From: an uncultured Myxococcales bacterium
GTDB taxonomy: Bacteria > Myxococcota_A > UBA9042 > CAIXZC01
Assembly (NCBI GenBank): GCA_903895725.1
Contig: CAITUV010000043.1
Location: 11,298 to 75,297 of the forward strand
Direction of reading: 5' to 3'
Length of the DNA stretch: 64,000 nt
Every line of letters starts with the position of its first letter. Within the stretch, counting starts at the first letter, position 1. The position numbers were made by a program, and so were the translations under genes. Shown here one piece after another: positions 7,609 to 57,283 of this stretch. The notes beneath the pieces were generated by a model. It worked only from the letters and a program-made list of their open reading frames with translations. It ran no database searches and was not told where the DNA came from.

Positions 7609-8181
7609 ATGGCAGAGAGGAAGAAGGCGGTCAAGCTCAAGGAGGTCTTCACGACCTATGACGCCGCAAGGATTTGCAACGCCAACATCGCTTCGATCAA
7701 GAACTGGATCCAGAAGGGGCTCCTCCGAGCCTTCCGAACTCCCGGCGGTCACTACCGGATCAAGCGGCGGGATCTGGAGCTGTTCCTCAAGAAGTACAAC
7801 ATGCCTTACCCGTTCCAGGACAAGGCGGAGAAGCAGATCTACGTGCTGACTCGGGACGACGCGTTCTACTCCGAAGTCGAGAAGGGACTCGCCGGTCACT
7901 CGGTCCGATGCTTTGGTGACGTGCTCGAGTCTGCACTCAACATCGGCCTCGAACGCCCCGACATTCTCGTGCTCGACCTCTCTTCCGTCGGGGAGGGGCT
8001 GGGGCTGCTCGAGCTGGTGAGCGGCTGCCCCGACACCCGGAACATCCAGTTCGTGCTGGTGGTGGCCGGTAAGAGCACCCCCGCTTCGGTGGAGCTGAGG
8101 AAGAAGTGGAACCTCGAGGATCTCATCGACAGGACCCTCGGCTCCGCCGCAGTCCTCAAGTCGCTTCAGCGCCTTCTCTAG
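7609..8181 (+). CDS. HTH (excisionase/MerR-like) DNA-binding domain fused to a C-terminal receiver-like domain
   Basis: ORF 7429..8181; ATG 7609 after GGGGGAGGTGG RBS; N-terminal HTH (TTYDAARICNANIASIKNWIQKGLLRAFRTPGGHYRIKRRDLELFL); C-terminal REC-like acidic pocket (LTRDD, ILVLDLSS, VVAGK). Confidence 0.7.
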   Translation: MAERKKAVKLKEVFTTYDAARICNANIASIKNWIQKGLLRAFRTPGGHYRIKRRDLELFLKKYNMPYPFQDKAEKQIYVLTRDDAFYSEVEKGLAGHSVRCFGDVLESALNIGLERPDILVLDLSSVGEGLGLLELVSGCPDTRNIQFVLVVAGKSTPASVELRKKWNLEDLIDRTLGSAAVLKSLQRLL

Positions 8182-28990: not shown

Positions 28991-29674
28991 ATGTCGTCGC
29001 GCCTCTTCCGGCCATCTGTTGCACCGCATGCCGTTTCGCTGATCGGCGATCGGCCGCGGTTGCCCCTCCCGCGTGGTCGGGGCTGTGTGCCGCCAGCATG
29101 GAAGACCGCTGATGATTGCCGCTTCACGAGGTTTCGGTTGGTGGCGGCAGTCGCCTGCCTGGCCGTCGCTTCCTGCTCCCCGCCTCCGGTGTACCGGATG
29201 GTCCTGCCCCAGGTGTCGGCCTCCAACTACTTCGTCGGCCCTGACCTCGAGGTCGTGTTCGAATTCGGTGAAAGGCACATCGAGGTTACCCTCAACAATA
29301 CCGGGGAGGGGGATGTCCTCATCGACTGGGCTCAGACCAGCCTGGTGCGCCCCGATGGCGTGGCAACGGCCCTGCTGCCGGCAACGGTCTCGTCGGTCCA
29401 GACGTTGCCGTCGGGGAGTCGCAGCACCATGCGCCTGAAGCCGGCCGACTGGCTGCTGCCTCCGCCGACTCTCTGGCACCGCCGGGCCAATCTGAGATAC
29501 CGGCTCGTTCCGGATCCTGTTTTCCAGCAGTGCGTGCCGATGGTTCGGGTCGCGGTACCGGTCAAGCGATTCCTGGGAGAGCGGGTGCTCAGCGAAGTGC
29601 TCCAGTTCTCGTTCCAGGTATCCCAGGGCGGCGACGTCCAGCCGGAGGGGGGTGAGAATGATCTCCCCTTCTAG
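28991..29674 (+). CDS. hypothetical protein (possible lipoprotein; N-terminus uncertain)
   Basis: ORF 28991..29674; ATG 28991 after GGAGAGGGG; hydrophobic/lipobox-like segment FRLVAAVACLAVASC about 45 codons in; a repeat element (29071..29130) lies inside the annotated 5' end, so the true start may be TTG/GTG near 29138..29141. Confidence 0.45.
   Translation: MSSRLFRPSVAPHAVSLIGDRPRLPLPRGRGCVPPAWKTADDCRFTRFRLVAAVACLAVASCSPPPVYRMVLPQVSASNYFVGPDLEVVFEFGERHIEVTLNNTGEGDVLIDWAQTSLVRPDGVATALLPATVSSVQTLPSGSRSTMRLKPADWLLPPPTLWHRRANLRYRLVPDPVFQQCVPMVRVAVPVKRFLGERVLSEVLQFSFQVSQGGDVQPEGGENDLPF
29071..29130. repeat. about 60-bp interspersed repeat element, copy A
   Basis: gcgtggtcggggctgtgtgccgccagcatggaagaccgctgatgattgccgcttcacgagg closely matches 57445..57503. 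Confidence 0.6.
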
Positions 29675-30320
29675 GAACCCGGTTTCGATGGTGGTCCTTC
29701 TGCCCGTGCTGGCCGTGGCGCTCTGGTCGTCTCCTGCGCTGGGCCAGGGGGATTGCCGCATCCCGGGAACCGGCGAAGACTCGGTCTGGGTCTCGGTGGC
29801 CCCTCTGGCCGGCGTGTCGATTACCATTCCGACCGCGGATCCGATGAGCGTCCGAAGGACGGCCCTTGCATTCGGCGGGGAGGTCACGCTCAATCTCCCG
29901 AAGCGCTTTGCGGTCGGTGCGCAGGTCAGCTACGCCCACTTCGACGGGCAGATGTCGCTGGTGCAGTGGGTGAGCCACATGGACATGCTGGCCGTCGGTC
30001 ACATCCCGCTCATCGTCACGGAGCGGTTTGACTGGATCCTTCTGGCCGCGGCGGGCACGAGCCTCGTGCGCAAGCAGTTCCTGCACAACCCGAAGCCGCA
30101 CGTCTCCGACTCGGGAGAGGTCACGTACTCCGGGGAGGTGCGTCGGGGCAACATCTGGACCCTCACGGGGGGTCTGGGGACCCGGCTGGTCGTCTACCCC
30201 GCGGACCCGGTCGGAATCTTTGCGCAGGCGCTGGTGACCTATGCGTACTTCAAGGCGCTCGAGCGGAGCGAAGGGCCCTGTACGGCCCAGATCACGGGCG
30301 GCGTCGAAGTCCACTTCTGA
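29658..30320 (+). CDS. probable small outer-membrane beta-barrel protein
   Basis: ORF 29652..30320; ATG 29658; signal peptide MISPSRNPVSMVVLLPVLAVALWSSPALGQG; alternating hydrophobic pattern; C-terminal aromatic residue (GGVEVHF) typical of OMP barrels. Confidence 0.5.
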   Translation: MISPSRNPVSMVVLLPVLAVALWSSPALGQGDCRIPGTGEDSVWVSVAPLAGVSITIPTADPMSVRRTALAFGGEVTLNLPKRFAVGAQVSYAHFDGQMSLVQWVSHMDMLAVGHIPLIVTERFDWILLAAAGTSLVRKQFLHNPKPHVSDSGEVTYSGEVRRGNIWTLTGGLGTRLVVYPADPVGIFAQALVTYAYFKALERSEGPCTAQITGGVEVHF

Positions 30321-30365
30321 ATTGATTGCCGACGAGCAGGTTGTTTCGGAGCAGGCCTTGGGCCC

Positions 30366-31379
30366 CTACTGGGCATCCAGGAGGACTCGATTCTTCCCTT
30401 CCCGCTTGGCCTGGTAGAGGACGCGGTCGGCCCTCTCGAGCATCTCTTTGGAGCCGGAATCCTCGGCGACGAACTGGGCGATTCCGCCGGAAATGGTCAT
30501 GCGCAGTGGCGTTCCGTCGGGCTTCACGATGCAGTCGAGGCCCTCGATGCGTGACCGGATGCGTTCCCCCATGGTCACGGCGGACTTCGCGGGCGTGTTG
30601 GGCAGAATCACGATGAATTCCTCACCCCCGATGCGGCCGACCACGTCGACCTGCCGCACGTCCTTGCGAAGGCTCTGGGCGATTGCGACGAGCACCTCGT
30701 CCCCGGTCTGATGGCCCAGGGTATCGTTGACCATCTTGAAGTTGTCCAGGTCGAGAAGAACGACCGAGAGCGGGGGGCCGTAACGACGGGCCCGGGCGGT
30801 CTCCTCTTCGAGCTTCTCTTCGATGTAGCGCCGGTTGTACAGGCCGGTCAGCGGGTCGCGCGTCGCCAACCGCTCGAGCTGTCGGTTCTGGTCCTCGAGT
30901 TGTCGGGTCCGCTCCGATACCAGGGCCTCGAGGGTCCGATTCTGGAGCTCGAGCTGCGTGAGAGCCTGGTCCCGCTGCCGGATGAGCGTACAGAGCTGGG
31001 AGAACTGCGAGATATGGGCCATGAGCCGTCCCGGCGAGATCGGCTTCTCGAGGAACCCGTTGACCTGACCCTCGTTGATTGCCTTGACCAGCCGTTCGTT
31101 GTCGACCCAGGCACTCATGAGCAGCCGGACGGTCCCGGGAGCCGACTGGCGGATGGTTGCCAGGAGCTCAACGCCCCCCGGCTCCGGCAACCGATCGTCC
31201 ACCAGCGCGATGTCGAATCGCACACTCTCGATCAGTCTCCTGGCCTCTGCAAAGGAGCCGGCAATACGGACGTCGAAGTACGGAGCCAGCAATTGGGAGA
31301 ACGAGAAGCGGACCGCCGGCTCGTCGTCCACCACCAGCAGGGTCAGGCGTTCCTTGGTTGCGTTCAGTTCTTCAGACAC
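30366..31379 (-). CDS. response regulator receiver domain fused to GGDEF diguanylate cyclase (PleD-like)
   Basis: ORF 30366..31613; start placed at GTG (plus 31377..31379) after AGGGGGG, alternative ATG 31412; REC motifs (LLVVDDEP, IALVDDRLP); GGDEF active site RIGGEEF. Confidence 0.8.
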   Translation of the reverse strand: MSEELNATKERLTLLVVDDEPAVRFSFSQLLAPYFDVRIAGSFAEARRLIESVRFDIALVDDRLPEPGGVELLATIRQSAPGTVRLLMSAWVDNERLVKAINEGQVNGFLEKPISPGRLMAHISQFSQLCTLIRQRDQALTQLELQNRTLEALVSERTRQLEDQNRQLERLATRDPLTGLYNRRYIEEKLEEETARARRYGPPLSVVLLDLDNFKMVNDTLGHQTGDEVLVAIAQSLRKDVRQVDVVGRIGGEEFIVILPNTPAKSAVTMGERIRSRIEGLDCIVKPDGTPLRMTISGGIAQFVAEDSGSKEMLERADRVLYQAKREGKNRVLLDAQ

Positions 31380-33577
31380 CAGTAGTACCCCCCTTCGGCA
31401 TACCAGCCGCATTGCCAGGTCGGTCCCAGGTTGGCGCACGGGAACTCCTGGAGCACTCCGTTCTGGCACCACTTCACCACGTTGCCATCGCACTTCCCGA
31501 TGTAGTCGATGTCGCCGCAGTAGCCCTGGCCGTAGACGCACTGGTTCTTGTCGTTGCACATCATCGTCGACGGGCAGTAGCCGCACACGTAGCCGCAGCC
31601 GTCGTCTCCACATTCCTTCTCATCGCAGTTCGGCACGCACGGAGTTTCGTAGCAGCCGTATACGAACAGGTTGGGCACCCAGCCGCACTGCCAGTACTGG
31701 CCGAGCCCCTTGCAGTCCTGGAAGTAAACCTTTCCTGCCTCGCACCAGACGACGGTGTCGCCCTGGCAGGCCGGCTTCTCGCTGTAACCACCGCACCCGC
31801 CCTGGGTTCCCTGGCAGACGTTGTCCTTGCATTCGGTCCCGGCCGGGCACTGGCCGCATGTGCCTCCGCAGCCGTCATCCCCGCACTGCTTCCCGCTGCA
31901 GCTCGGGACGCACGGGCCTTCGCAGTAGTAGGGGAACTCATCGGGGCCCTTGGTCTCCTCCGCCACGCAGTCGTAGAACTTGAACTCCGGGTTCCAGCCG
32001 CACTTCTGCTTTGCGGGGTCCACCAGCGTTGAACAGTCCATGTACCAGAGCACCCCGTTGTCGCACCACAGCACCGAGCTGCCGGAGCAGCACCCATGGT
32101 AGGTGACGTCGCCGCAAGGTCCCTGGCCGATGCAGAGACCATTCGGGTCGCACGTCTGCCCGGGCTGGCACTTGCCGCAGCTCCCGCCGCAGCCGTCGTC
32201 GCCGCACACTTTGTTTGCACAATCCGGCACGCACTCGCCGTGGGGGTTGCAACCGTAGGCCTTGGTCGCCTCCAGCCATTCACATACCACGTTCTTCCCC
32301 ATGGACTTGCAGTTGGTCACCTGCAGCTTACCGGCATTGCAGGTGAGCAGGTTGTTCCCGTCGCACCAGCCGGCCGGACCGATTCCCATGCAGTCGCCAC
32401 CGGCCGTCGCACAGCTCCCTGCGTCGACGCAGTACTTCCCGCTCGGGCATGTTCCGCATGACCCCCCGCAGCCGTCCGAGCCGCACTCCTTCCCCTCGCA
32501 GTCCGGTGCCACGCAGTCAGACACGCACAGGCCCTGTGCCGAGCACCAGCCCCAAGGAGGACACTTGCCGCAGCTCCCGCCGCAGCCATCCGGACCGCAC
32601 TCCTTGCCCAGGCAGGACGGCTCGCACACGATCTTGCACTGCCCTTCGGTGCACTTCTCGCCCGGAAGGCAGGTGCCGCAGCTCCCGCCGCAGCCATCAT
32701 CGCCGCACTTCTTCCCCGCACAGCTCGGGTTGCACGGCTCCGAGCACTTGAAATCCTTGCACTGGTAGCCGAACTTGCACGCACCGCAGCTCCCGCCGCA
32801 GCCGTTGTCACCGCATTCCTTGTTCTCGCACACCGGAACGCACAGGGTGCACTTCCCCTCGGGGCCGCACCCCTTGCCCTGAGGGCAGTCGCCGCAGCTC
32901 CCGCCGCAGCCGTCCGGGCCGCACTCCAGACCTTCGCAGTCCGGAGAGCAGACCGGCACGCACTGGTTGTACTTGCCGCACTCGTGCCCCTCGGGACAGG
33001 TTCCGCACTCGCCCCCGCAGCCGTCATCGCCGCACAGCTTCCCCTTGCACTCCGGCATGCAGCACTCGCCGGTTCCCTCGATGCACACGAAGTCCTTGGG
33101 GCATTCGCCGCACGTGCCGCCGCAGCCGTCCGGGCCGCAGTTCTTGCCGTTGCAGTCGGGAATGCAGATGTCCAGGAATCCTTCCGGTCCCACACCGTCC
33201 GGCCCGCCCCCATCGGGCGAGACGTCGTCGGCTCCGCCATCCCCCGGGGAGTCGACGTCCGGGGACTCGATCTCCGCCACGTCACCGTCCTGTGTGAGGC
33301 ACTTCCCATCCTTGCAGCCGAACGCACACTCCAGGCTGACCTTCCACCAGAGCTTGCCCTGGCCGTCCAGCGAGCAGCGCAGCACGACCCACCGATCTCC
33401 TTCACCCGGGGCGCATTCCTGCTTGCCGAGTTCAGCACAGGCCGTGTCGGCCACCGGGTAGGTCGTCACCTGGGAAGGATCCTTGCTGCCACACGCTGCG
33501 ACGAGCATTCCGGCCGTCGCCAGGAGCAGGCTCATCCCGAAAGGAACCACATTCCTCAGAACGCGGTCGATCGCCAT
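31364..33577 (-). CDS. cysteine-rich tandem-repeat lipoprotein (about ten CxPxCxGKxCGxDGCGGxCGxC modules)
   Basis: C-terminal 737 codons of ORF 31364..34525 from ATG (plus cat 33575..33577) after GGAGGTG RBS; lipoprotein signal MAIDRVLRNVVPFGMSLLLATAGMLVAAC; about ten repeats such as CIPDCNGKNCGPDGCGGTCGECP, CMPECKGKLCGDDGCGGECGTCP. Confidence 0.75.
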   Translation of the reverse strand: MAIDRVLRNVVPFGMSLLLATAGMLVAACGSKDPSQVTTYPVADTACAELGKQECAPGEGDRWVVLRCSLDGQGKLWWKVSLECAFGCKDGKCLTQDGDVAEIESPDVDSPGDGGADDVSPDGGGPDGVGPEGFLDICIPDCNGKNCGPDGCGGTCGECPKDFVCIEGTGECCMPECKGKLCGDDGCGGECGTCPEGHECGKYNQCVPVCSPDCEGLECGPDGCGGSCGDCPQGKGCGPEGKCTLCVPVCENKECGDNGCGGSCGACKFGYQCKDFKCSEPCNPSCAGKKCGDDGCGGSCGTCLPGEKCTEGQCKIVCEPSCLGKECGPDGCGGSCGKCPPWGWCSAQGLCVSDCVAPDCEGKECGSDGCGGSCGTCPSGKYCVDAGSCATAGGDCMGIGPAGWCDGNNLLTCNAGKLQVTNCKSMGKNVVCEWLEATKAYGCNPHGECVPDCANKVCGDDGCGGSCGKCQPGQTCDPNGLCIGQGPCGDVTYHGCCSGSSVLWCDNGVLWYMDCSTLVDPAKQKCGWNPEFKFYDCVAEETKGPDEFPYYCEGPCVPSCSGKQCGDDGCGGTCGQCPAGTECKDNVCQGTQGGCGGYSEKPACQGDTVVWCEAGKVYFQDCKGLGQYWQCGWVPNLFVYGCYETPCVPNCDEKECGDDGCGYVCGYCPSTMMCNDKNQCVYGQGYCGDIDYIGKCDGNVVKWCQNGVLQEFPCANLGPTWQCGWYAEGGYYWCLKN

Positions 33578-33615
33578 GCTGCACCTCCGGACACAACTCT
33601 GACATTGTACCTTGC

Positions 33616-33629
33616 GCCCGTGCACGGGC
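33616..33629. promoter_or_regulatory. perfect 14-bp palindrome GCCCGTGCACGGGC in a divergent intergenic region (candidate operator)
   Basis: Self-complementary 14-mer centred between the divergently transcribed Cys-rich lipoprotein gene (start 33577) and the plus-strand gene starting at 33716. Confidence 0.35.
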
Positions 33630-33715
33630 AAGACATTTGATGCCGCTCCGGCCCTCGGCGTTTCTTGCCCGCCGCCGGAAGCGGTGTTACACAGGGAGAA
33701 AGGGGGGAAGTGGCC

Positions 33716-35044
33716 ATGAGGTTCCAACAACGAGTCGCAGCGGTTGCAGCCGTTTCCGGTCTGCTTTGCACCTTCCTGCCGACCTTTGCAGCGAATGCCG
33801 CCATCTGGACCGCATCGGCAGCGGTGAAGGGGAGCTCGGTGGAGGTGGCCGTCACCGTCCGCCTCTCGGGCTGCGCCGGCGTCGGGCGGGTCGAAAGGCA
33901 GGTCGACGGGGAGGAGCCGTTCGTCGTGTGGCTGGGCGACGATGCGCATGCGGTCGACACGGCGGAACCCTTTGATTCCTGCAAGTGCGAGCCTCTCGGT
34001 ACGGCCTGGGGTACCGGCATGAAGAGCTGCCCCGAGGAGCAGTGCGGCAAGGACGACCAGTGCGTGTGCACTGAGCTGTGCGTTCCAGTCGTGGACTCGT
34101 GCCCCCCTCCGGGCATGCTGGAGTACAAGGTGTTCGACCGGGAAGGTGCGGAAGCAGTTTCGACCCAGTTGTTCGTGCCCGACCTTTTGCCGGGGTGCAA
34201 GGCCCCGGAGAACCCCGGTCCCGTCGTTGCCGAGCCCGCTCCCGGAGATGGGGGCGGGTGCCAGACGGCCTCCAGGCCCTCGTCCCCGCTGACGGTGGTG
34301 CTCGGGGCGCTGCTTCTGGGGGTGCTGCGGTGGGGGCGGCGGCGGGGAAGAAGGGGAATAGGACGAATAGGACGCATAGGACGCATAGGACGCATAGGAC
34401 GCATAGGACGCATAGGACGCATAGGACGCATAGGGGGCATAGGACGCCGCCGCCCCGGAGTGCGTGACGACGCTTGCGAGCCGGGGCTGCCGGTGCGGGC
34501 GAGCCTGGGTGGGCCCACGGCTCACGGCTCACTGCCCACGGCTCACGGCTCACTGCCCACGGCTCACGGCTCACTGCCCACGGCTCACGGCTCACTGCCC
34601 ACGGCTCACTGCTCACTGCCCGGGGCCCTTCTCGCATCCCTTCTCCTGGCTGCGGGGTGTGCGCGGGGCAAGAAGGACGAGAAGGTCGTTGCCGCGCCTC
34701 AGCCCCCTCAGCCGGTTGAATCGAGCGTCGAAGGGACTCCGTTCGAGGTGGTCGTCACGACGCAGACCGAGCTGCTCGACCTGTTCGAGACCGGAACGTC
34801 GGCCGAATCCGTTCTCTGGCGGGGCGACCGCTTCCGCAAGAAGCGGGCGGACCAGTTCGCCAAGGACTGTCGCCTCGCCCTCGACTTCTACTCCGAGGAT
34901 GCCGCAAACCGCATGCTGATCCTGGCCAGTGCGGGCAGGGTATGGACCGTTGTCGAGCAGCGGGTCAAGGTGCTCTCGAAGGAGTGGAGCCCGGCGCAGC
35001 GCCGCCAGGCGGACGTCCTCCTCGACCAGTTCGCTTGCCGGTGA
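33716..35044 (+). CDS. hypothetical secreted protein: N-terminal domain ending in a MYXO-CTERM-like segment, joined in frame through two tandem-repeat arrays to a lipoprotein-like C-terminal domain
   Basis: ORF 33665..35044; ATG 33716 after GAGAAAGGGGGG; signal peptide MRFQQRVAAVAAVSGLLCTFLPTFAANA; GDGGGCQTASRPSSPLTVVLGALLLGVLRWGRRRGRRG resembles a MYXO-CTERM tail; then (IGR)n and (PTAHGSL)n repeats; then LLASLLLAAGC lipobox-like segment; may be two genes or a fusion. Confidence 0.45.
   Translation: MRFQQRVAAVAAVSGLLCTFLPTFAANAAIWTASAAVKGSSVEVAVTVRLSGCAGVGRVERQVDGEEPFVVWLGDDAHAVDTAEPFDSCKCEPLGTAWGTGMKSCPEEQCGKDDQCVCTELCVPVVDSCPPPGMLEYKVFDREGAEAVSTQLFVPDLLPGCKAPENPGPVVAEPAPGDGGGCQTASRPSSPLTVVLGALLLGVLRWGRRRGRRGIGRIGRIGRIGRIGRIGRIGRIGRIGGIGRRRPGVRDDACEPGLPVRASLGGPTAHGSLPTAHGSLPTAHGSLPTAHGSLPTAHCSLPGALLASLLLAAGCARGKKDEKVVAAPQPPQPVESSVEGTPFEVVVTTQTELLDLFETGTSAESVLWRGDRFRKKRADQFAKDCRLALDFYSEDAANRMLILASAGRVWTVVEQRVKVLSKEWSPAQRRQADVLLDQFACR
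34357..34446. repeat. 9-bp tandem repeat (CATAGGACG-like) x10
   Basis: Ten contiguous 9-nt units at 34357..34446; in the plus ORF frame they encode (R-I-G)n; the other two plus-strand frames carry TAG per unit or encode (RT)(HRT)n (acg-cat-agg, stop-free). Confidence 0.9.
34516..34620. repeat. 21-bp tandem repeat (CACGGCTCACGGCTCACTGCC) x5
   Basis: Five contiguous 21-nt units, the last a variant; encode (PTAHGSL)n in the plus ORF frame. Confidence 0.9.
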
Positions 35045-46000: not shown

Positions 46001-49000
46001 TGCCAGCATATCAAGAGCGACTGCAACGATTCGAAGAAGTGCACCAACGACTACTGCGATCCGGTCGAGGGATGCCAGAACGTGGCGGTCCAATGCAATG
46101 ACGGCAACCCCTGCACCACCGACGGCTGCAACGAAGCCACCGGCGACTGCAACAACGTGCCGAAGAACTGCGACGACGGCAACCCCTGTACGGTCGACCT
46201 GTGCAACAAGTCGAACGGCAAGTGCTACAACCCGCCGGTCAACACCGACGACGCCAACCCCTGCACCGTGGATACCTGCGACCCGGATACGGGCGCCCAG
46301 GTCCACAACTACATCGACTGCGACGACGGGAGCCCCTGCACCATCGACGTCTGCAACATCGGCAACGGGCTTTGCGAGAACATCCCGAACTCGTGCAACG
46401 ACAACAACAACTGCACCAAGGATACCTGCGACGAAGTCGTCGGCTGCGTGAACAGCAACATCTGCGGCTGCTGCCCGGCCGGCACGAACCAGCTGGACGA
46501 TTCCCTGTGCAAGGATACCGTGCCTGGCACGGGGAGCCCCAACCTGTGCACGCTCGATGCCTGCTACCTGGACGGTGCGACCAACAAGTGCCTCTGCAAG
46601 AACAACCCGGTGTCGTGCACCGATGACGGCAACAAGTGCACGTTGGAGAAATGCGACCCGGTCACCGGCAAGTGCCTGCATGAGCCGGCCCCGTGCGACG
46701 ATTCGAACAAGTGCACCATCGACGAGTGCATTCCGGCCGACGGAAGCTGCACGCATCTGCCCAAGGTGTGCAACGACCAGAACCCGTGCACCGAGGACTC
46801 GTGTGCTCCGGCCACGGGCAACTGCGTGTACAAGCCCAAGGACTGCAGCGACGGCAACTTCTGCACCAGCGACGTGTGCGTGGAAGCGACCGGAGCGTGC
46901 AAGTACACGCCGGTCGACCCGGAGGACGGGGACCTGTGCACTCTCGATTGGTGCGACCCGGTCGTCGGCATCAAGCACCAGCTCATCAGCGTGGACGACG
47001 GCAACAAGTGCACCATCGACACCTGCGACAAGGCCACCGGTGCGCCGAAGAACACGCCGGTCGACTGCGGCGACAAGAACGTGTGCACCGTGGACTACTG
47101 CGTCCCGGCCACCGGCAAGTGCATGAACGACGCCATGCCGTGCAGCGACGGCAACGCCTGCACCAAGGATGCGTGCAACCCGGCCACCGGCCTTTGCGAG
47201 TACAAGTTCTCCTGCGACGACAAGAACCTGTGCACGGACGACTTCTGCAACACCATGACCGGCTGCAGCAACGTCAACGTCAATTGCGACGACGGCAATG
47301 CCTGCACTTCGGACGTGTGTGACCAGGCCACGGGCAAGTGTGTCCACGGCAAGCTGGACTGCGACGACAAGAATGCGTGCACCATCGACCTGTGCGACCC
47401 GGCCAGCGGCGGGTGCAAGCACACGAACAAGTGTGAGGACGGCAACCCGTGCACGCTCGACGTGTGCGACCCGACCACACTGAAGTGCTCGTACAAGCCG
47501 GCGTGCGACGACTCGAGCAAGTGCACCAAGGACGACTGCAACGTCAACACCGGTGAGTGCACCTACCTGCCCGTCGACTGCAAGGACGCGAACCTCTGCA
47601 CGACGGACGAGTGCAACCCGGCCACGGGCTGCGTCAACAAGGTGAAGTCGTGTGACGATGCGGACAAGTGCACGCTGGACGTTTGCGACGGCAAGACCGG
47701 GGGGTGTGTCAACACGCCGGCCATCTGCGACGACGGGGACCTGTGCACCATCGATTCGTGCAACCCGGCCACCGGGGCCTGCACATACGAGCTGCTGTGC
47801 GACGACGGCGACGGCTGCACCGTGGACAAGTGCGTGCTGGCCGGCGGTGAGGCCACCTGCTCCCACACGCCCAAGGTGTGCAACGACAAGCTGCTGTGCA
47901 CCAGCGACTCCTGCATCAAGGATACGGGGGCCTGTGTGTTCACTCCCAAGGATTGCGGGGATACGGACCTGTGCACCGTGGACACCTGCAACGCGCTCGA
48001 CGGCACCTGCAAGCATGTTGCCAAGAACTGCAACGACAACAACAAGTGCACTTCGGACGCCTGCGACGGCGTCACCGGCAAGTGCGTCAACACGATGATG
48101 GACTGTGCGGACACCAACCTCTGCACCACTGACTACTGCGACCCGAAGACCGGGGTGTGCAAGCACGACTACAACCTCTGCAACGACAGCAACAAGTGCA
48201 CCGTCGACCTGTGCATCCTCGAGACGGGCAAGTGCCAGAACACGCCGGTCAACTGCGACGACGGGGATGCCTGCACCGACGACTCGTGCGACGGCGCCAC
48301 GGGCAGCTGCACGCACAAGACAAAGAGCTGCAATGACTCCAACCTCTGCACCACCGACTGGTGCAGCAAGGCAGACGGCTGCCACAACGACGCGAAGCTG
48401 TGCGACGACGTGAACGCCTGCACGACCAACAACTGCAACCCGGCCACGGGCGGGTGCTACTACACGCCGCTGGACTGTGACGACAAGGACCTCTGCACCA
48501 CCGATACCTGCGACAAGGCCAAGGGGTGCCAGGTTGCCAAGAAGTGCAACGACGGCTATGTGTGCACCAACGACCTCTGCAACCCGAACACCGGGGCCTG
48601 CACTTACAAGAATGCCTGCGACGACGGCGATGCCTGCACCAACGACATCCCGACGCCCAACGGCGACAAGTGCGACTGCAAGCTGGAAGCCGTGGCCTGC
48701 GACGACAAGGTGCCGTGCACGGACGATTCGTGCGACCCGGCCAAGGGATGCGTCAACGTGGCCAAGACGTGCGACGACGGCAACAAGTGCACCGTCGACA
48801 TGTGCGAGAAGGCGACGGGGATCTGCAAGAACACTCCGATCACCTGCAACGACAACGACGACTGCACGAAGGATTCCTGCGCGGCGGAGACCGGGAGCTG
48901 TGACTACACTCCGGCCTGCGACGACGGGATCAAGTGCACCGTGGACAACTGCAGCCCGGGGGCCGGAGTGCCGGATGGCAAGTTCACCTGCGACATCAAG

Positions 49001-52000
49001 CCCAAGGCCTGCGACGACAGCAACAAGTGCACCGTGGATTCCTGCGACGAGGAGACGGGCAACTGCGTGTACCAGGAGCTCGACAAGGACGACGGCAACG
49101 CGTGCACCGTGGACATCTGCAACCCCATCACGGCGGAGGTCTACCACGTAGCGCTCGACTGCAACGACTTCAACGCCTGCACCATGGACTCGTGCAACCC
49201 GGATACCGGCTGCGTGAACACGGCCATGGACTGCGACGACAAGGACCTGTGCACCTTCGACTACTGCGACCCGTCCCTGGGCGTCTGCAAGCACGACCCC
49301 AAGCAGTGCGAGGATGCCAACGCCTGCACGACGGACTACTGCGACCTGGCCACGGGCAAGTGCGTGAATCAGCCCAAAAAGTGCGACGATGGCAATGCCT
49401 GCACCGAGGATGTCTGCCAGGCAGCGACCGGTCAGTGCAAGTACCTCGTCAAGAACTGCGATGACGGCAATGCCTGCACGGCGGACACCTGCGACGCCCA
49501 GAGCGGATGCTCCAACGTGGCCAAGGTGTGCAAGGACAACAGCGCCTGCACGGTGGACGGATGCAACGCTCAGACGGGGCTGTGCGAATACAAGCCGGTG
49601 GACTGCAACGACTTCAGCATGTGCACCGACGATGCCTGCGACCCGGACCCGGCCGTGGGCTGCTACCACATCTCCATCTGCAACGACACGAACCCTTGCA
49701 CGACAGACCTGTGCGATGAGAAGACCGGCAAGTGCACCTACACGCCGGCCTGCGACGACGGCAATGCCTGTACGTTCGACGATTGCAAGATTGATTCGGG
49801 CGCATGCACGCACGAGGCGATCAACTGCAACGACAACAACCTCTGCACCGCGGACAGCTGCGACAAAGCCAAGGGGTGCGTGAACGCCTGGAATAACTGC
49901 GACGACGGCAACAAGTGCACGGTGGACACGTGCGACCCGGCCAACGGCAAGTGCCTGAACGACCCGAAGGACTGCGGCGACGACGACATCTGCAGCGACG
50001 ACCTTTGCGACACCAAGACCGGCGAGTGCAAGCACACGCTCCACTGCGACGACAAGAACCTCTGCACCACCGACTTCTGCAACACGGTGACCGGAGCCTG
50101 CACTTACGAGACCGTGGTGTGCAACGACGGTGACAAGTGCACGGTGGACACGTGCGACCCGCTGACGGGTGCCTGCAATTACTCCTCCACCGCGTGCGAC
50201 GACAAGGACGCCTGCACCAACGACTTCTGCAAGCCGGCCGACGGCACGTGCTCCTACGTGGCGGTGGGCTGCATCGACGCGGACCCGTGCACCGACGACT
50301 CATGTGACAAGGTGAAGGGCTGCCTCCACACGGCCAAGGTGTGCGACGACAAGGATCTGTGCACCAACGACTTCTGCAATCCGGCGAGCGGGGCCTGTAC
50401 CTACCAGAGCAAGAAGTGCAACGACGGTGACCCCAAGACCTGGGACTCCTGTGACGTGGCCACGGGCGAGTGCGTCTACAAGCCGTGCGCCTGCGACGAC
50501 GGGAACAAGTGCACCGACGACTCCTGCGACAACACCGGCAAGTGCGTCTACACGACGACCAACTGCGACGACAAGGATGCCTGCACCACGGACATCTGCA
50601 CTGCGGACAAGGGTTGCCAGTACCAGAACAAAGACTGTTCCGACGGCAACGCGTGCACCGACGACGTCTGCAACAAGGACACGGGCATCTGCTCGAACCT
50701 GGCCAAGTCGTGCGACGACAAGAACATCTGCACGAAGGATTCCTGCGACCCGAAGCTGGGGTGCCAGAACCTGGCGGCCTGCGATGACGGATATGCCTGC
50801 ACGACCGACGTGTGCAACCCGGCCGACGGCAAGTGCACCTACAAGCCCAAGTGCGAGGATTCCAACGCGTGCACGAAGGACACGTGCGACGTGGCCACGG
50901 GCAACTGCACGAACGTGGCCATCTCGTGCGACGACAAGAACCCGTGCACCGACGACGCGTGCAACCCGGCCGTGGGATGCGTGAGCACTCCCAAGGTCTG
51001 CTCCGACTCGAACCTGTGCACGACCGATTCGTGCAAGGCCGACACGGGCGATTGCGTGTTCACTCCCAAGAGCTGTGACGACGTGAACCCGTGCACCCTG
51101 GACAGCTGCGATGCGGCCACGGGCAAGTGCAGCTACAAGCCCAAGTGCGACGATTTCAAGAACTGCACCACGGACACTTGCAATGCGGCGACGGGGGCCT
51201 GCGCCAACACGCCGGTGGTCTGCAACGACAACGCTCCGTGCACCACCGACACCTGCGACGAGGCCACGGGCAAGTGCACCTACAAAATGAAGGACTGCGA
51301 CGACAAGAACGCGTGCACCGACGACCTGTGCGACCCGCTCACCACCAACTGCGTCAACGTGGTCAAGAGCTGCAACGACAACAACAACTGCACCGACGAC
51401 TCCTGCGACCCGGCGACGGGCTGCAAGAACGTGGCCAAGACCTGTGACGACGGCAACAAGTGCACGTCGGACACCTGCAACCCGAGCAACGGGCAGTGCG
51501 ACAACATCCTCAAGACCTGTGCGGACAACAACAAGTGCACGGTGGATTACTGCGACCAGAATACCGGCAGCTGCGTCTACCAACCCCAGGTCTGCGACGA
51601 CAAGAACAACTGCACCGACGACTCGTGCGACACGCTGACCGGCGAGTGCAAGTACACCACGAAGAATTGCGACGACAAGAGCAAGTGCACCACCGACTTC
51701 TGCGATGCGCAGCTCGGCTGCGTCAACCAGATGAAGGATTGCAGCGACGGCAACGCCTGCACCGAGGACTCGTGCGACGCGGTTACCGGCCTGTGCAAGA
51801 ACACCACCATGGATTGCAAGGACGGCAACCCGTGCACGCTGGACAAGTGCGAGCCGGACAAGGGGTGCGTCTGGACCTCCAAGTGTGAGGACGGGCTCAA
51901 GTGCACCACTGACCTGTGCAATCCGCTGGACGGCGCCTGCACTTACAAGCAGAAGTGCGACGACTCGAACTTCTGCACGACCGACGTCTGCAAGGAGACC

Positions 52001-55000
52001 GACGGAAGCTGCTCGACGACTCCCGTCAACTGCGATGACAAGAACCTGTGCACGAACGATTCGTGCGACCCGACCAAGGGGTGCGTCAACACGCTGAAGT
52101 CGTGCGACGACAAGAACCCGTGCACGGACGACAAGTGCGATGCGTTGACGGGCAACTGCTCCAACACGGCCAAGGTCTGCGACGACAAGGACATCTGCAC
52201 GACGGACAGCTGCGACCCGGTCTCGGGCGTCTGCAAGTTCGCCAGCAAGTGCGAAGATGGGAACAAGTGCACGGTCGACTCGTGCGATCCGGCCCAGGGA
52301 GGCAAGTGCACGAGCGTACCGCTGGTCTGCGACGACAAGAGCAAGTGCACGGACGACAAGTGCGACCCGGCCAGCGGGAACTGCGTGTTCACCGCCAAGG
52401 CATGCGACGACGGCCTCAAGTGCACGGACAACAAGTGTGATCCGCTGACGGGCAACTGCTCGTTCCCGCCCAAGGAGTGCGACGACAAGAACATCTGCAC
52501 GACCGACTACTGTGATGCGGCAACGGGCAACTGCGTCAACGACCCCAAGAACTGCGGGGACAACAACCTCTGCACCACGGACTCGTGCGACATGGTCAAC
52601 GGCGGCTGCATCAACGCCCCGAAGGACTGCAACGACAACAACCCGTGCACCAACGACACCTGCAATGCGGCGGACGGCAAGTGCGCCAACACTCCGATTC
52701 CGTGCAACGACAGCAACGCCTGCACGGACGACAAGTGCGTCAACGGCCAGTGCCAGTACACGACCAAGGTCTGCAGCAAGCCGGACAAGTGCCTGGTCAC
52801 CGGCTGTGACCCGCAGACCGGTTGCTGGGAGAAGGCCAAGGACTGCAACGACGGCAACGCGTGCTTCGATGACCTGTGCGATCCGTCGTCGGGCAACTGC
52901 CTGCACCCGGCCGTGGACTGCAACGACAACAACCTCTGCACGGTGGATTCGTGCGACCCGGGTGCCACGGGCAAGGCCAACGGCTGCGAGAACAAGCTGA
53001 TGGTTTGTGACGACAAGAACCCGTGCACGACCGACACGTGCGATCCGGCGACGGGCAACTGCAAGAACGTCAACTACTGTGACGACGGCTTGAAGTGCAC
53101 CACGGAACAGTGCGACCCGGCCACCCTGCAGTGCACCTTCCTGCCGAAGAACTGCGACGATGGCGACAAGTGCACTTCGGATTCCTGTTCTGAGGTCAAG
53201 GGCGGCGCGTGCGTCAACCAGGTCAAGGACTGTGTGGACTACGTCGACCCGGCCAAGACCGTCCCTGACCTGTGCACTCTCGACAGTTGCGACAAGGGCA
53301 CCGGCGAATGCCTCCACGAGCAGAAGAACTGCAACGACAACAACATCTGCACTGCGGACTCCTGCAACAAGCTGACCGGCGAGTGCAAGTACGCTCCGTC
53401 CTGCTCGGACAACAATAAGTGCACGACCGACTTCTGCGATGCGCAGACGGGTGCCTGCTCGCACCAGAACGTGGTCTGCGACGACAAGAACCCGTGCACG
53501 ACCGATTCGTGCGACGTGCTGACGGGAAGCTGCAAGTACACGGCGATCAAGTGCTCGGACGGCGATGCCTGCACGCAGGATGTCTGCTCGCCCAACGGCC
53601 AGGGCGGATTCGTCTGCACCAACCCGCCGTGGGACTGCAACGACGCCAACCCGTGCACGGTCGATTCGTGCAACAAGACCGACCCGGATGGCAACGGCTG
53701 CATGAACCAGGCCAAGGTGTGCGACGACAAGAACCTGTGCACCGTCGATGCCTGCGATCCGAAGTCGGGTGACTGCACCTACAATGCCAAGAATTGCGGC
53801 GACGGCAACCCGTGCACGGTGGATCTCTGCGACAACGGCACCGGCAACTGCTCCAACTCGCCGCTCGTCTGCGACGATGCCAGCAAGTGCACCACGGACA
53901 AGTGCGACCCGGCCACCGGGAACTGCATCTACACGGCCATCTCGTGCGACGACGGCAAGAAGTGCACCAACGACACCTGCGACCCGTCGGTGGGCTGCAA
54001 GAACCACCCGAAGGAATGCATCCCGAACCCGGCCGACCCGTGCATGACCTACGGATGCACCGAGCTGACCGGCAACTGCTTCCAGGAGACGAAGAACTGC
54101 GACGACAAGGACCCGTGCACTACGGGGGACTACTGCGACCCGGATTCGGGCGGCTGCGTCAACGTGGCCATGGTCTGCAACGACGGCAACAAGTGCACCG
54201 ACGACAAGTGCGGGCCCGATCCGCTGGCCCCGACCAAGGGCAAGTGCTTCTTCACGACCGTGAGCTGCGACGACAACAACGCCTGTACCGACGACTCGTG
54301 CGATCCCGTCAAGGGGTGCCAGAACAAGGCCAAGGCGGGCGTGCAGTGCACGTCCGAGGCCCAGTGCGGCGACGGCAGCCTCTGCACCAACGACGTGTGC
54401 GACACGACCGTCACCTGCAAGTGCTCCAACCCGACCAAGAGCTGCAACGACAGCAACTGCTGCACGGTGGACTCGTGCGACCCGGCCAAGGGGTGCGTCA
54501 ACGCCATCCAGTACGACGGGTGTGCGGTGTGCAAGCTCGACAAGGACTGCCTGGTCGAGTGTCCCAAGATCAACGGCGTCCCCATCTCGCCGGACGACCC
54601 GGTTACCGGCAAGTGCGACCCCGATACCAAGGTGGTCTACGATGCCAAGGGGGTGCCTCACATCCAGCGCACGGCCTGCACCACGTGGTACTGCGACCTG
54701 GCCGCTCAGGGCTGCGGTACCGGCTCGGGCAAGTGCTCCTACACGATCAAGGACTGCAGCGACAACAACGTCTGCACCCTCGACTTCTGTATTCCCGACG
54801 GAGCCAATGCCGGCGAGTGCCTGCACGAGGCCAACCCGCTGTGCTGCACGGCCAAGACCGATCCTCCGCTGATGGAGGAAGACCCGGCCTGGGACCCGGC
54901 CAAGTCACTCTGCTTCGACGACGACCCGTGCACGACGGACTTCTGCGACTACGACACGGGGAGCTGCTACTACGAGCCCGTCGTCTGCTTCGACGGCAAC

Positions 55001-57283
55001 GAGTGCACCATCGACGCGTGCGTCTCGGACAAGGGCGGCTGCGTCTACACGGGCATCGAGAACTGCCGGTACACCTGCTACAACGATTACGACTGCCGCT
55101 TCGACCACGGCAAGAACATCGGCGAGGTCTGTGACGATGGCAACACGGTATCGGGCGACGGCTGCCGGAAGGACTGCCGGAGCGCCGAGACGTGCGGCAA
55201 CGGCGCAGTCGACACGGCCAAGGCCGAGGAGTGCGACGATGGCAACACGGCGGCCGGCGACGGCTGCTCTGCCACCTGCAAGCTCGAGATTGCCGCCACC
55301 TGCGGCAACGGCAAGATTGATGCCGGCGAGGCCTGCGACGATGCCAACAAGGTCAGCAAGGACGGCTGCCGGAAGGACTGCAAGAGCAAGGAGACCTGCG
55401 GCAACGGCCTCGTCGACACGGAGAAGGGCGAGGAGTGCGACGACGGCAACAAGATTCCGGGCGACGGCTGCGGCAACACCTGCAAGCTCGTGCCCGACAT
55501 GGCCTGCGGCAACATGCTGGAGGACCCGGCCGACGTGGACTTCCTGTGCAGCACCGAGTACTGCACGTTCACGGCCGACCCGTTTGGAACCTGCATCTAC
55601 GAGACGCTCGAGTGCGACGACGGACACGCCTGTACGGACTTCGTCGAGTGCGCACCGGCTTCCGGCTGCCAGCACGTGCCGGTCGTGGGCTGCAATGATA
55701 CCTCGTGCGTCAAGCCTCAGGGCCAGGAAGCCCAGGCACCGGAGTGCTTCGACGACAACCTGTGCACGGGCGACACCTGCGGTGAGGATGGCAAGTGCAT
55801 CGTCCTACTGATCCCGTGCGACGACAACGACGGTTGCACCATGGACTGGTGCGATCCCAAGACCGGCTCGTGCATGCACAAGCAGGCGGCCAACTGCGTC
55901 TCCGACTGCACGCAGCTCGGGGGCAACTCGGCCTGCAACGACAACGACTTCTGCACGGTCGACGAGTGCGACGAGTTCAACGGCGTCTGCAAGTACAACC
56001 TGCTCGAGTGCGACGACCATGACGTCTGCACGACCGACACGTGCGATGCCGCAACCGGGTGCAAGTTCACCACCATCGCCAACTGCAAGGGCTGCTCAGT
56101 GGACAAGGATTGCGACGACGGCAACGTCTGCACCATGGACCGCTGCCGTGAGGCCAATCCGCTCAGCCTCGACGACGCCAACTACATCGGCGACGGGTTC
56201 CAGCACCCGGCCAAGTACTGCACCTACCGGTCGGTTTGCGCCAGCTGCACGACCGATGCGGACTGCACGGCCGCCATGGCCGACAACCTCTGCATCACCA
56301 GTGCCAAGTGCAACGTCGCCACCGGGTTCTGCGACCTCAAGATCACTCAGTGCGACGACAAGGACCCGTGCACCGAGGACGAGTGCAACATCTTCACCGG
56401 CGAGTGCGTCAACGCCCCGGTCGCCAACTGCTGCGACACCATCGAGGACTGCGTGGACACCAATCCCTGCACCGGGCGCTGGTGCGACACGACCGCCAAG
56501 GAGTGCAACTTCCCGTACTACCTGTGCGACGACTGGGATCCGTGCACGGCAGATTCCTGCGACTACTTCACGGGCAACTGCAAGCACGAAGACCTGGCCA
56601 ATTGCTTCGACGAGTGCGAGAAGGATCTGGACTGCCGCTACCACGCGGACCCGGTCAACTGGTGCTCGGTCCCGACCTGCGATCTGGATGCCAAGACCAT
56701 GAGCATGAAGTGCAACTACGCTGTGCTGGAGTGCTCGGACGCTTTGGCCTGCACGACGCAGGACTGCCTGTCCAACTTCGGATGCATCTTCTTCCCCGAC
56801 ACGCCGTGCGACGTGGTCTGCACCAAGGATTCCGACTGCAACGACGGCGACCTTTGCTCCACCGACACGTGTGACAAGGCCAAGGGCGAGTGCAAGTACG
56901 AGGCCGTGGTCTGCGACGACGGCAACGAGTGCACCTACAAGGAGTGCGACAACCGGACCGGCAAGTGCGTGTTCACCGAGTGCCCGGATTGCAAGTGCGA
57001 GAACTGCTCTCTGCACGAGCCCGGCTTCTGTGACGACGGCAACGTCTGCACGACGGATTCCTGCCCCGAGGGCGACTTCCCGACCTGCAAGCACCGTTGG
57101 TTGACCTGCAACGACGGCAACCCCTGCACGCAGGACGTCTGCGATCCGGTCAAGGGCTGCACGGCCGTGCCCATCGAGAAGTGCATCGGCTGTACCAGCG
57201 ATTCCGCCTGCGACGATGGAAACGACTGCACCATCGACATGTGCACCGACAACTCCTGCGAGCACGTATACATCTGCGGCTAA
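43079..57283 (+). CDS. giant (about 4,734 aa) cysteine-rich repeat lipoprotein: Dictyostelium-type CTDC repeats plus Myxococcus cysteine-rich repeats
   Basis: ORF 42884..57283; ATG 43079 after GAGGAGGGTG; lipoprotein signal [28 protein letters not shown]; more than 100 degenerate units of C-x-D-x-N-x-C-T-x-D-x-C-(D/N)-P-x-T-G-x-C; near aa 4080-4200 about four units of CGNGxxDxxEECDDGNxxxGDGC; uninterrupted frame across 14.2 kb. Confidence 0.85.
43830..55100 (+). repeat. coding tandem array of degenerate CTDC-type repeats (about 75-90 nt period) inside the giant gene
   Basis: Recurrent tgcgacgac...aac..tgcac...gac..tgcgacccg..accggc..tgc motif throughout; units diverge at synonymous and non-synonymous sites; boundaries approximate. 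Confidence 0.6.

Follow-up and report, generated by a model that had tools for sequence, protein, structure and literature searches.

The DNA analyzed here is a stretch of 64,000 nucleotides (nt) from an uncultured Myxococcales bacterium (GTDB lineage Bacteria; Myxococcota_A; UBA9042; CAIXZC01; GenBank assembly GCA_903895725.1, contig CAITUV010000043.1, positions 11,298 to 75,297), hereafter called the window. Its minus strand carries a gene for a Cys-rich lipoprotein of 737 amino acids (aa), and the last codons of this gene contain the probable start of a second gene for a putative diguanylate cyclase with a receiver (REC) and a GGDEF domain. In this study, we propose that the lipoprotein is an anchored stalk, made rigid by disulfide bonds and equipped with binding heads, which is translationally coupled to a cyclase of the WspR/DgcR type. 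The anatomy of the lipoprotein is near certain. Function is the weak part of the proposal, and the reading as a whole is put forward tentatively, as a possibility somewhat short of an even chance.

The minus-strand frame that ends at 31364 is open back to 34525. We place the gene start at ATG 33577 because GGAGG lies 6 nt upstream, 15 full-length orthologues (52–87% identity) begin there and public gene calls agree; the identical 737-aa product has been called on nine public contigs. The protein contains 113 Cys (15.3%) and 134 Gly (18.2%), and the G+C content of its gene is the same as that of the remainder of the window. The signal peptide consists of an n-region with two Arg, a hydrophobic core and the lipobox V-A-A-C29, conforming to the lipoprotein-signal pattern [LVI][ASTVI][GAS]C; its Cys is invariant in the 15 orthologues and preceded by Ala, Gly or Ser. 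A preliminary description of the locus had spoken of a Cys-rich lipoprotein of about ten CGxDGCGGxCGxC modules. Indeed, the motif CG.[DN]GCG..CG.C is present in exactly ten copies (at aa 147, 182, 219, 255, 291, 327, 365, 458, 565 and 656), many more than chance would give, and a looser CG motif has no other occurrence when all six frames of the window are read. Beyond that description, we recognized a six-Cys N-terminal domain and four modules of a second type that alternate with the last modules of the first type. The first type, which we call CG (about 34 aa, 8 Cys), has the consensus C-x-P-x-C-x-G-K-x-C-G-x-D-G-C-G-G-x-C-G-x-C-P-x-G-x-x-C-x(4-5)-C, and the second, WC (about 54 aa, 6 Cys), the consensus C-G-x(7)-C-x-G-N-x-V-x-W-C-x-N-G-x-L-x(4)-C-x(8)-C-G-W-x(7)-Y-x-C. 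After seven tandem CG modules the order is WC1-CG8-WC2-CG9-WC3-CG10-WC4, reaching the last residues of the protein (Table 1), and the module string cccccccWcWcWcW is identical in all 16 orthologous sequences. In CG10, the Tyr preceding the final Cys (CGYC) is invariant and a GYV segment is found in 10 of 15 orthologues. No DNA-level tandem repeat was found inside the gene; together with the module order common to the orthologues, this argues that the protein repeat is not an assembly artefact. A recent DNA duplication was rejected on the same grounds, the architecture being kept in the 15 orthologues.

After the lipobox Cys, 112 Cys remain, and they are distributed in even counts: eight in each CG module, six in each WC module, and seven in WC2 plus one in its linker. 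The seventh Cys of WC2 is matched in number by the extra Cys552 of the following linker, with which it may pair. Across the 15 orthologues none of the 113 Cys varies, and such even, invariant counts are the pattern that disulfides predict. Conservation outside this framework, measured as the pairwise identity of the orthologues at non-Cys/Gly positions, climbs from the N-terminal domain to WC4 (Table 1), so that the end of the lipoprotein most distant from the lipid anchor is the most constrained. The WC modules are rich in invariant Trp, Tyr, Phe, Asn and Gln, and in WC4 residues of each of these five kinds are invariant among the orthologues; conservation within the CG modules is practically limited to Cys, Gly, Asp, Pro and Lys. 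By analogy, this gradient fits a stalk-and-head design like that proposed for the Cys-rich stalk of TraA.

The downstream gene encodes a product with clear matches to Response_reg (E 8e-18, 65 bits against a PF00072 cut-off of 30.2) and GGDEF (E 8e-50, 169 bits against a PF00990 cut-off of 23.8). Aligned to PDB entry 6zxm, its translation holds RQVDVVGRIGGEEF plus LLVVDDE and IALVDD, with the GG[DE]EF motif, the RxxD site and the receiver Asp in place, and it is predicted to be a phosphorylation-controlled diguanylate cyclase. It aligns full-length to WspR and with an E of 1e-43 to 6zxm. Its best solved relatives are DgcR (6zxm), PleD (1w25, GGDEF domain) and WspR (3bre); with the single-receiver cyclases WspR and DgcR it shares the combination of REC and GGDEF, the GGEEF motif and the RxxD site. 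Since its NCBIfam scores lie below every equivalog cut-off, we class it as a generic protein of this family rather than as the orthologue of any named enzyme.

The lipoprotein gene stops with TGA at 31366-31364, and the REC-GGDEF frame is open upstream of this stop. The codon GTG 31379 spans two lipoprotein codons, taking its first G from the end of TGG (Trp733) and its TG from the beginning of TGT (Cys734); because both residues are invariant, this start codon cannot drift. In the window and in lineages L001, L012 and L007, strand beta-1 of REC (LLVVDD) would not stay intact with any canonical start further downstream, and as none is found between this GTG and beta-1, an overlap is unavoidable in this genome. 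An alternative start at ATG 31412 would give 348 aa and an overlap of 49 nt, and each of the two versions has been called in public data. All eight cyclase-carrying lineages have the GTG in frame, each with a purine-only run 8 nt upstream (GAAGGGGGG, GAGGGAGGA, GACGGAGGG, AAGGGAGGA or GAGGGAGAA). The Gly codons of this run are GGR (R, purine) in 15 of 15 cases with the cyclase and in 5 of 11 in which the cyclase is absent or unknown (Fisher exact p ~0.002, shared ancestry uncorrected); across the window lipoprotein gene, GGR makes up 38%. Judged by codon usage, this bias is the synonymous-site signature of a predicted ribosome-binding site within the lipoprotein gene. We favor GTG 31379 over ATG 31412 because of this Shine-Dalgarno signature and because the sequence upstream of the ATG is a poor Shine-Dalgarno match. 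The preliminary description had likewise placed the cyclase start at GTG 31379 in the last lipoprotein codons and suggested coupled expression, and the in-frame GTG of all eight carriers with its GGR-built Shine-Dalgarno agrees with the former. Across 30000-34000 no terminator-like site was found, and no promoter-like site except that at 33631-33604, one sigma-70-like match where 0.2 would be expected by the consensus scan, which is not evidence of function. The overlap, the lack of such sites between the genes and a linkage that is kept down to a lipoprotein identity of 56–59% are consistent with coupled expression of lipoprotein and cyclase.

The cyclase gene lies directly downstream of the lipoprotein gene in 8 of 17 orthologous lineages (the window, L001/L002, L012, L092, L005/L006, L007 (=L013), L093 and L015). 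In a neighbor-joining tree of the lipoproteins, the carriers fall into one inner clade, which includes two non-carriers (P0002 and P0003), and both outgroup clades are without cyclase; one gain followed by two losses would be the simplest history. Identity to the distant carriers is 46–50% for the cyclase and 56–62% for the lipoprotein, and genes inherited together would be expected to show such a tracking of one identity by the other. The two genes are also adjacent in L005 and L092, despite a different arrangement of the surrounding block. The receivers of L093 (3573-4535) and L015 (~3933 onward) look degenerate, with VLVATDD and ELLLVGCSRDE compared to the acidic pocket LLVVDDE, and for the L093 cyclase Pfam records only GGDEF, which suggests that phosphorylation control may have been lost there. 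What follows the lipoprotein in the outgroup clade is an unrelated gene of 816–862 aa without Pfam match (L009 7175-9763, with the lipoprotein end at 7190; L094 4257-6707). The L009 gene is called from the same GTG in the Trp-Cys codons, with a 16-nt overlap; in the close relative L094 the call lies 123 nt downstream, and the start in L009 may therefore be an artefact of the gene caller.

Family searches gave no name to either module. In Pfam, no family was found at E<=10 for the whole lipoprotein or for isolated modules, single and triple CG included, the negatives comprising EGF, LDLa, CBM_14 (PF01607), Chitin_bind_1 and Dicty_CTDC (PF00526); a profile search with a single repeat unit, which the preliminary description had proposed, is covered by this result. 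NCBIfam returned 0 families at E<=1 for the whole lipoprotein, the Myxococcus Cys-repeat families TIGR04201 and TIGR02232 included. Among PDB sequences, the whole lipoprotein had no match and the WC profile none at E<=10, and the full-text literature searched for module peptide strings and related topics yielded nothing. CG and WC appear to be two module families that have not been described before. Structure prediction, likewise proposed earlier, was run with AlphaFold2 (AF2) on orthologue alignments and gave usable models, with a predicted local distance difference test score (pLDDT) of 84.6 for CG9-WC3-CG10-WC4 (88–95 in blocks of WC4) and 84.5 for CG1-4; fold searches gave weak results. 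In these models the CG modules have scarcely any regular structure besides a closing beta-hairpin, and the WC modules form a five-strand antiparallel beta domain with a one-turn helix. The weak Foldseek neighbors of the CG model are EGF, LDLa, TNFR and hevein arrays, all non-significant. In the case of WC, an hhalign comparison of its profile with the CBM14 sequence of chitotriosidase gave a P of 0.005 and a probability of 7%, the alignment sharing an 'aromatic-C-x-x-G-x-L-x4-C' register between WC and the chitin-binding domain. This may be taken as a fold-level resemblance, not as membership of the family. Several known types were considered for the CG module and rejected: hevein/CBM18, suggested by its 8 Cys and Gly-rich sequence (no CC doublet, no conserved aromatics, no Pfam match), a zinc ribbon or DnaJ-type CxxCxGxG (one CxxC per module only), and a Ca-binding LDLa-like module (one conserved acidic residue per module only).

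Combining these elements, we propose the following model. The lipoprotein would be exported by the Sec route, acylated at Cys29 and lipid-anchored in the envelope. In Myxococcus, a Lys at position +2 retains lipoproteins in the inner membrane; because the lipobox Cys is followed by no Lys at +2 (CGSK), the lipoprotein is predicted to be probably an outer-membrane or surface protein. The remaining 112 Cys could form about 56 disulfides. Beyond the variable N-terminal domain and the acidic linker, the seven CG modules would constitute a stiff, protease-resistant stalk, and the four WC modules, separated by single-CG spacers, far from the anchor and increasingly conserved towards the tip, may act as multivalent ligand-binding heads. 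Their likeliest ligand would be a polysaccharide of the N-acetylglucosamine (GlcNAc) type, e.g., chitin or cell wall. In this genome and its subclade, the lipoprotein gene is presumably co-transcribed with that of the WspR/DgcR-type REC-GGDEF cyclase, which would be translated from GTG 31379 by means of a Shine-Dalgarno sequence that lies within Glu-Gly-Gly codons of the lipoprotein. With a shared transcript and an embedded start, an adhesin-like protein and a phosphorylation-controlled source of cyclic di-GMP (c-di-GMP) would be made together.

Several findings weigh against this proposal. The lipoprotein has no characterized homologue, only two of five AF2 models of the CG stalk are confident, the CG model has no significant fold match in Foldseek (best E 0.039, TM score ~0.2), and the hhalign probability for WC and CBM14 is only 7%. 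The cyclase is absent in 9 of 17 lineages (L003, L010, L008 (=L016), L095, L094, L009 (=L019), L017, L018 and L020), two of them within the same subclade, so the lipoprotein does not need the cyclase; as far as these loci indicate, the pairing is persistent yet dispensable and belongs to the subclade, not to the lipoprotein family. The Glu-Gly-Gly residues that hold the purine-only run are common also in lineages without cyclase. Finally, L005 and L092 have a TTG 8–9 nt past the stop that would provide a textbook start (MRILVVEDD and MSVLIVEDE, respectively). At the homologous position the window clade has CTG, so that an older start without overlap may have given way to the overlapping one. 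This CTG itself was rejected as start of the window cyclase: it is non-canonical, the AGGA upstream of it is not kept in L001 or L012, and its support is weaker than that for GTG 31379.

An alternative that concerns the link only, and that we regard as somewhat unlikely, holds that the overlap is meaningless for the lipoprotein and reflects compact packing in a gene-dense syntenic block in which the cyclase landed and which it left again. The clean absence of the cyclase from the nine lineages agrees with such a history, as does the tight packing in L003, where the gap to the next, convergent gene is 3 nt (8179-8181). In addition, the flanking UvrA, TGT, genes labeled X, Y and Z and UDP-glucose dehydrogenase are syntenic with or without cyclase, and no histidine kinase or c-di-GMP effector was identified beside the pair at the examined loci. 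A neutral neighbor, however, would not readily account for a linkage kept in eight lineages at the identities given above, for the adjacency of the pair within the differently arranged block of L005/L092, or for a synonymous choice that keeps the Shine-Dalgarno in the lipoprotein gene exclusively in lineages with the cyclase.

With respect to the protein itself, the lipoprotein might be a purely structural scaffold or spacer of envelope or matrix, similar to cuticle or matrix proteins, cross-linked by disulfides and without a specific ligand, in which WC is a further structural bead. Such a role would suit the CG modules, in which little besides Cys, Gly, Pro and Asp is conserved, and a much expanded family with 8–17 CG modules per protein in which Pfam and NCBIfam revealed no catalytic or known binding domain; moreover, Cys-rich proteins are typical of the extracellular matrix (PMC3325183). 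We nevertheless consider it unlikely, as WC3 and WC4 are the most conserved parts and contain many invariant polar and aromatic residues that are non-structural, the modules are joined to enzymes in paralogues, which suggests targeting over bulk structure, and WC carries a putative CBM14-like fold signal.

The stalk-and-head reading can also be carried further than we do. In the furthest version, WC would be the bacterial counterpart, homologous or convergent, of the peritrophin-A/CBM14 fold and the lipoprotein a tetravalent chitin/GlcNAc adhesin, hard-wired to a c-di-GMP cyclase within a large lineage-specific set of disulfide-knotted surface proteins; this we judge doubtful, a long shot at present. 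CBM14/peritrophin-A domains (chitotriosidase 6so0, Avr4 6bn0/4z4a, Der p 23 4zce, Blo t 12 2mfk, EHEP 8in3) resemble the predicted WC module in having about 50 aa and six Cys, in being small antiparallel beta domains in multiple copies, and in the hhalign register. WC differs from them in the lack of a PF01607 match and in a shorter C1-C2 spacing, and chitin binding is putative. CBM14 is essentially a eukaryotic and baculoviral family.

Two further readings have little room. A thiol-based, metallothionein-like protein whose reduced Cys chelate Zn, Cu or Cd or scavenge periplasmic oxidants would be in keeping with 15% Cys, a CxxC-like spacing (CGxC) and the few regular secondary-structure elements predicted in CG. 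It is very improbable given that predicted export and lipidation would deliver the protein to an oxidizing compartment, that the Cys number is even in every module and all Cys are invariant, that each module has a single CxxC and no His, that AF2 predicts a defined fold with terminal beta-hairpin, and that the weak Foldseek neighbors (EGF, LDLa, TNFR, hevein) are disulfide modules. Hardly credible is a multi-headed inhibitor of proteases or lytic enzymes that shields the envelope as an array of Kazal, antistasin or WAP type, for which only the general analogy to small disulfide-module arrays and the generic small Cys modules in Foldseek speak, whereas no Pfam inhibitor family matches, the CG loops are short with variable exposed residues, and in paralogues it is enzymes and adhesin domains that bear the modules.

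Operons in which a signaling gene adjoins that of a modular, Cys-rich surface protein are of a familiar kind, and myxobacterial Cys-repeat stalks have already been described. In Myxococcus TraA, Cys-rich tandem repeats were proposed to form the rigid stalk of a surface receptor (PMC3325183). TraA-type repeats (TIGR04201, TIGR02232) come from the same phylum, belong to exported surface proteins anchored by lipid or tag and, like the modules described here, are short, tandem and Cys-rich; they are thought to be oxidized and to keep a binding domain off the membrane (PMC3325183). The lipoprotein differs in having no NCBIfam/TIGRFAM match at E<=1, in Cys spacing and consensus, in its anchor, an N-terminal lipobox and not MYXO-CTERM, and in its heads, which are WC and not PA14. 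Eukaryotic EGF-like domains (Pfs25, thrombomodulin), LDLa, the cysteine-rich domains of TNFR and hevein/WGA share with the predicted CG module a size of 30–40 aa, three to four disulfides, little regular structure, a beta-hairpin at the end of the module and an arrangement in long tandem arrays; CG has a unique consensus with 8 Cys in 34 aa and a CGxDGCGGxCGxC core, and no Pfam match. The same genome encodes a further protein of short, Cys-rich tandem repeats that is predicted to be extracellular: a giant open reading frame (ORF) in the window specifies 4,799 aa with 14.9% Cys and consists almost wholly of Dicty_CTDC (PF00526) repeats, 29 of them in one 1000-aa slice (E 7e-205), with a DUF4215 match near the C-terminus. 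The preliminary description had held the lipoprotein repeat to be unlike these CTDC repeats and counted two unrelated Cys-repeat families in the window; this distinction stands, as the giant ORF matches PF00526 and the lipoprotein does not, and no meaningful BLASTP or hidden Markov model (HMM) relation exists between them. A kinship of the N-terminal domain or of any module with the giant protein was rejected, the BLASTP signal being low-complexity noise only.

The module families are numerous. A full-length lipoprotein search found more than 4,000 proteins at E<=0.001 among 8,000 scored candidates, and when 1.84 billion representatives were searched exhaustively with a profile, 2,752 clusters (50% identity) reached E<=0.001 and 155 of them E<=1e-30. 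From species-representative genomes, 98 loci passed confirmation. According to the source labels of the best 80 of these 98, nearly all derive from metagenome-assembled genomes (MAGs) labeled Myxococcales, Myxococcota or Deltaproteobacteria, and a few carry other or broader labels (Pseudomonadota, 'proteobacterium', Enterobacteriaceae); apart from these few, the families are confined to uncultured Myxococcota-type genomes. Several isolate names among the sources indicate lakes (e.g., Baikal, Erken). Many of the loci share a genome, with at least 11 in VGRX01, a MAG from a Lake Tanganyika sample that also contains the closest relative (L012, 90% identity). All of the best 120 matches have 7–20 modules (CG plus WC), 44 also have WC, and about half have a lipobox. 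The partner domains in paralogues are PAD_porph (recurrent), NAGPA+SLH+PPC, LTD, Lcl_C and Cu2_monoox_C; being carried on unrelated extracellular enzymes and adhesin domains, the CG and WC modules behave as spacers or binding modules. The paralogues with PAD_porph, a Porphyromonas-type peptidyl-arginine/agmatine deiminase (P0017, P0020-P0029, P0122, P0124, P0125 and P0138), stem from the same MAG group and combine a lipoprotein signal, PAD_porph and 9–17 CG/WC modules, often in the string WcWcccWcWcccccWcc.

Two sets of neighboring genes recur around the lipoprotein gene. A gene without Pfam match adjoins it in most loci, divergent or co-directional (L001 4455-5717, L003 4759-5925, L005 4793-5857, L010 3774-4856, L007 3822-4907, L011 3894-4940). 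It forms one ORF in seven of seven loci, which encodes, in this order, a signal peptide, a Cys-rich domain of about 150 aa, an internal MYXO-CTERM-like segment ('GGGC + hydrophobic helix + Arg-rich'), a second hydrophobic stretch that ends in a lipobox-like (A/T)GC and a conserved C-terminal domain of about 140 aa ending in Cys-Arg. The product may span the membrane twice, or it may be a precursor that is cleaved into two halves, each lipid-anchored. In the window, two in-frame DNA tandem repeats, absent in the orthologues, lengthen the predicted loop between the two hydrophobic segments; the L001 orthologue has a PVGMLPVG-type repeat at the N-terminus instead. Two small genes of envelope type, neither with a Pfam match, overlap by 23 nt and converge with the cyclase gene; one has a lipobox-like LAVASC and the other ends in ...VEVHF. 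This pair is kept downstream of the lipoprotein in most orthologous loci, with or without cyclase.

Table 1. Features of the lipoprotein–cyclase locus and neighboring genes in the window (identity: pairwise, non-Cys/Gly positions of orthologues; CDS, coding sequence)
Feature	Coordinates	Strand	Identity	Basis or remark
Sigma-70-like promoter match TTGCCC-16-TACAAT, upstream of lipoprotein gene	33604..33631	-		Consensus scan only
Shine-Dalgarno GGAGG, 6 nt 5' of ATG 33577	33584..33588	-		Direct reading of sequence
Lipoprotein CDS, 737 aa + stop	31364..33577	-		ORF, sequence MAIDRVLRNVVPFGMSLLLATAGMLVAAC at N-terminus, orthologues, public gene calls
Lipoprotein signal peptide, lipobox V-A-A-C (Cys29)	33491..33577	-		Basic n-region, hydrophobic core, invariant Cys
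N-terminal six-Cys domain, aa 45-95	33293..33445	-	0.26	All Cys invariant; least conserved folded part
Acidic Asp/Pro/Gly-rich variable linker, aa 96-135	33173..33292	-		Gappy, poorly conserved in orthologue alignment
Seven tandem CG modules, aa 138-389, 8 Cys each, ~34-36 aa	32411..33166	-	0.37-0.52 (CG1-8)	Motif scan; every Cys invariant
WC module 1, aa 392-445	32243..32404	-	0.43	WC alignment; HMM domain E 2.5e-20
CG module 8, aa 449-482	32132..32233	-	0.37-0.52 (CG1-8)	Motif scan
WC module 2, aa 484-539, seventh Cys	31961..32128	-	0.46	WC alignment, HMM
CG module 9, aa 556-588	31814..31912	-		Motif scan; part of AF2 model
WC module 3, aa 591-644	31646..31807	-	0.54	AF2 model, WC alignment, HMM
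CG module 10, aa 647-680, variant CGDDGCGYVCGYC	31538..31639	-	0.59	Motif scan
WC module 4, aa 683-736	31370..31531	-	0.63	Most conserved part of protein; AF2
Purine-only Shine-Dalgarno-like run GAAGGGGGG in lipoprotein Glu-Gly-Gly codons, 8 nt 5' of GTG 31379	31388..31396	-		Sequence; codon pattern
16-nt overlap, lipoprotein 3' end / REC-GGDEF start	31364..31379	-		GTG 31379-31377 from TGG TGT codons
Putative REC-GGDEF response-regulator diguanylate cyclase CDS, 337 aa from GTG 31379	30366..31379	-		Pfam
REC domain, acidic pair in LLVVDDE, Asp at phospho-acceptor position in IALVDD	31011..31337	-		Pfam; alignment to PDB 6zxm
GGDEF domain, GGEEF motif, RQVD (RxxD inhibitory site) five residues upstream	30387..30866	-		Pfam, NCBIfam, 6zxm alignment
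Small envelope-type gene	28991..29674	+		
Small envelope-type gene	29652..30320	+		
Neighbor gene adjoining the lipoprotein gene	33716..35044	+		
Tandem repeat in neighbor gene, 9 nt x 10 (GRI x10)	34358-34447	+		
Tandem repeat in neighbor gene, 21 nt x 5.2 (PTAHGSL x5)	34513-34621	+		
Giant ORF with Dicty_CTDC repeats	42884..57283	+		

In summary, neither the module families nor the embedded start overturns current understanding. If confirmed, the junction would offer a worked example of a downstream start and its ribosome-binding site both lying inside an upstream coding sequence and leaving a signature at synonymous sites. Naming CG and WC would annotate many hypothetical surface proteins in a few thousand clusters, including the PAD_porph fusions, and would give a handle on how presumed predators or particle colonizers touch their targets. 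Should even the tetravalent-adhesin version be true, attachment to particles or prey would be linked with the transition to a surface-attached state.

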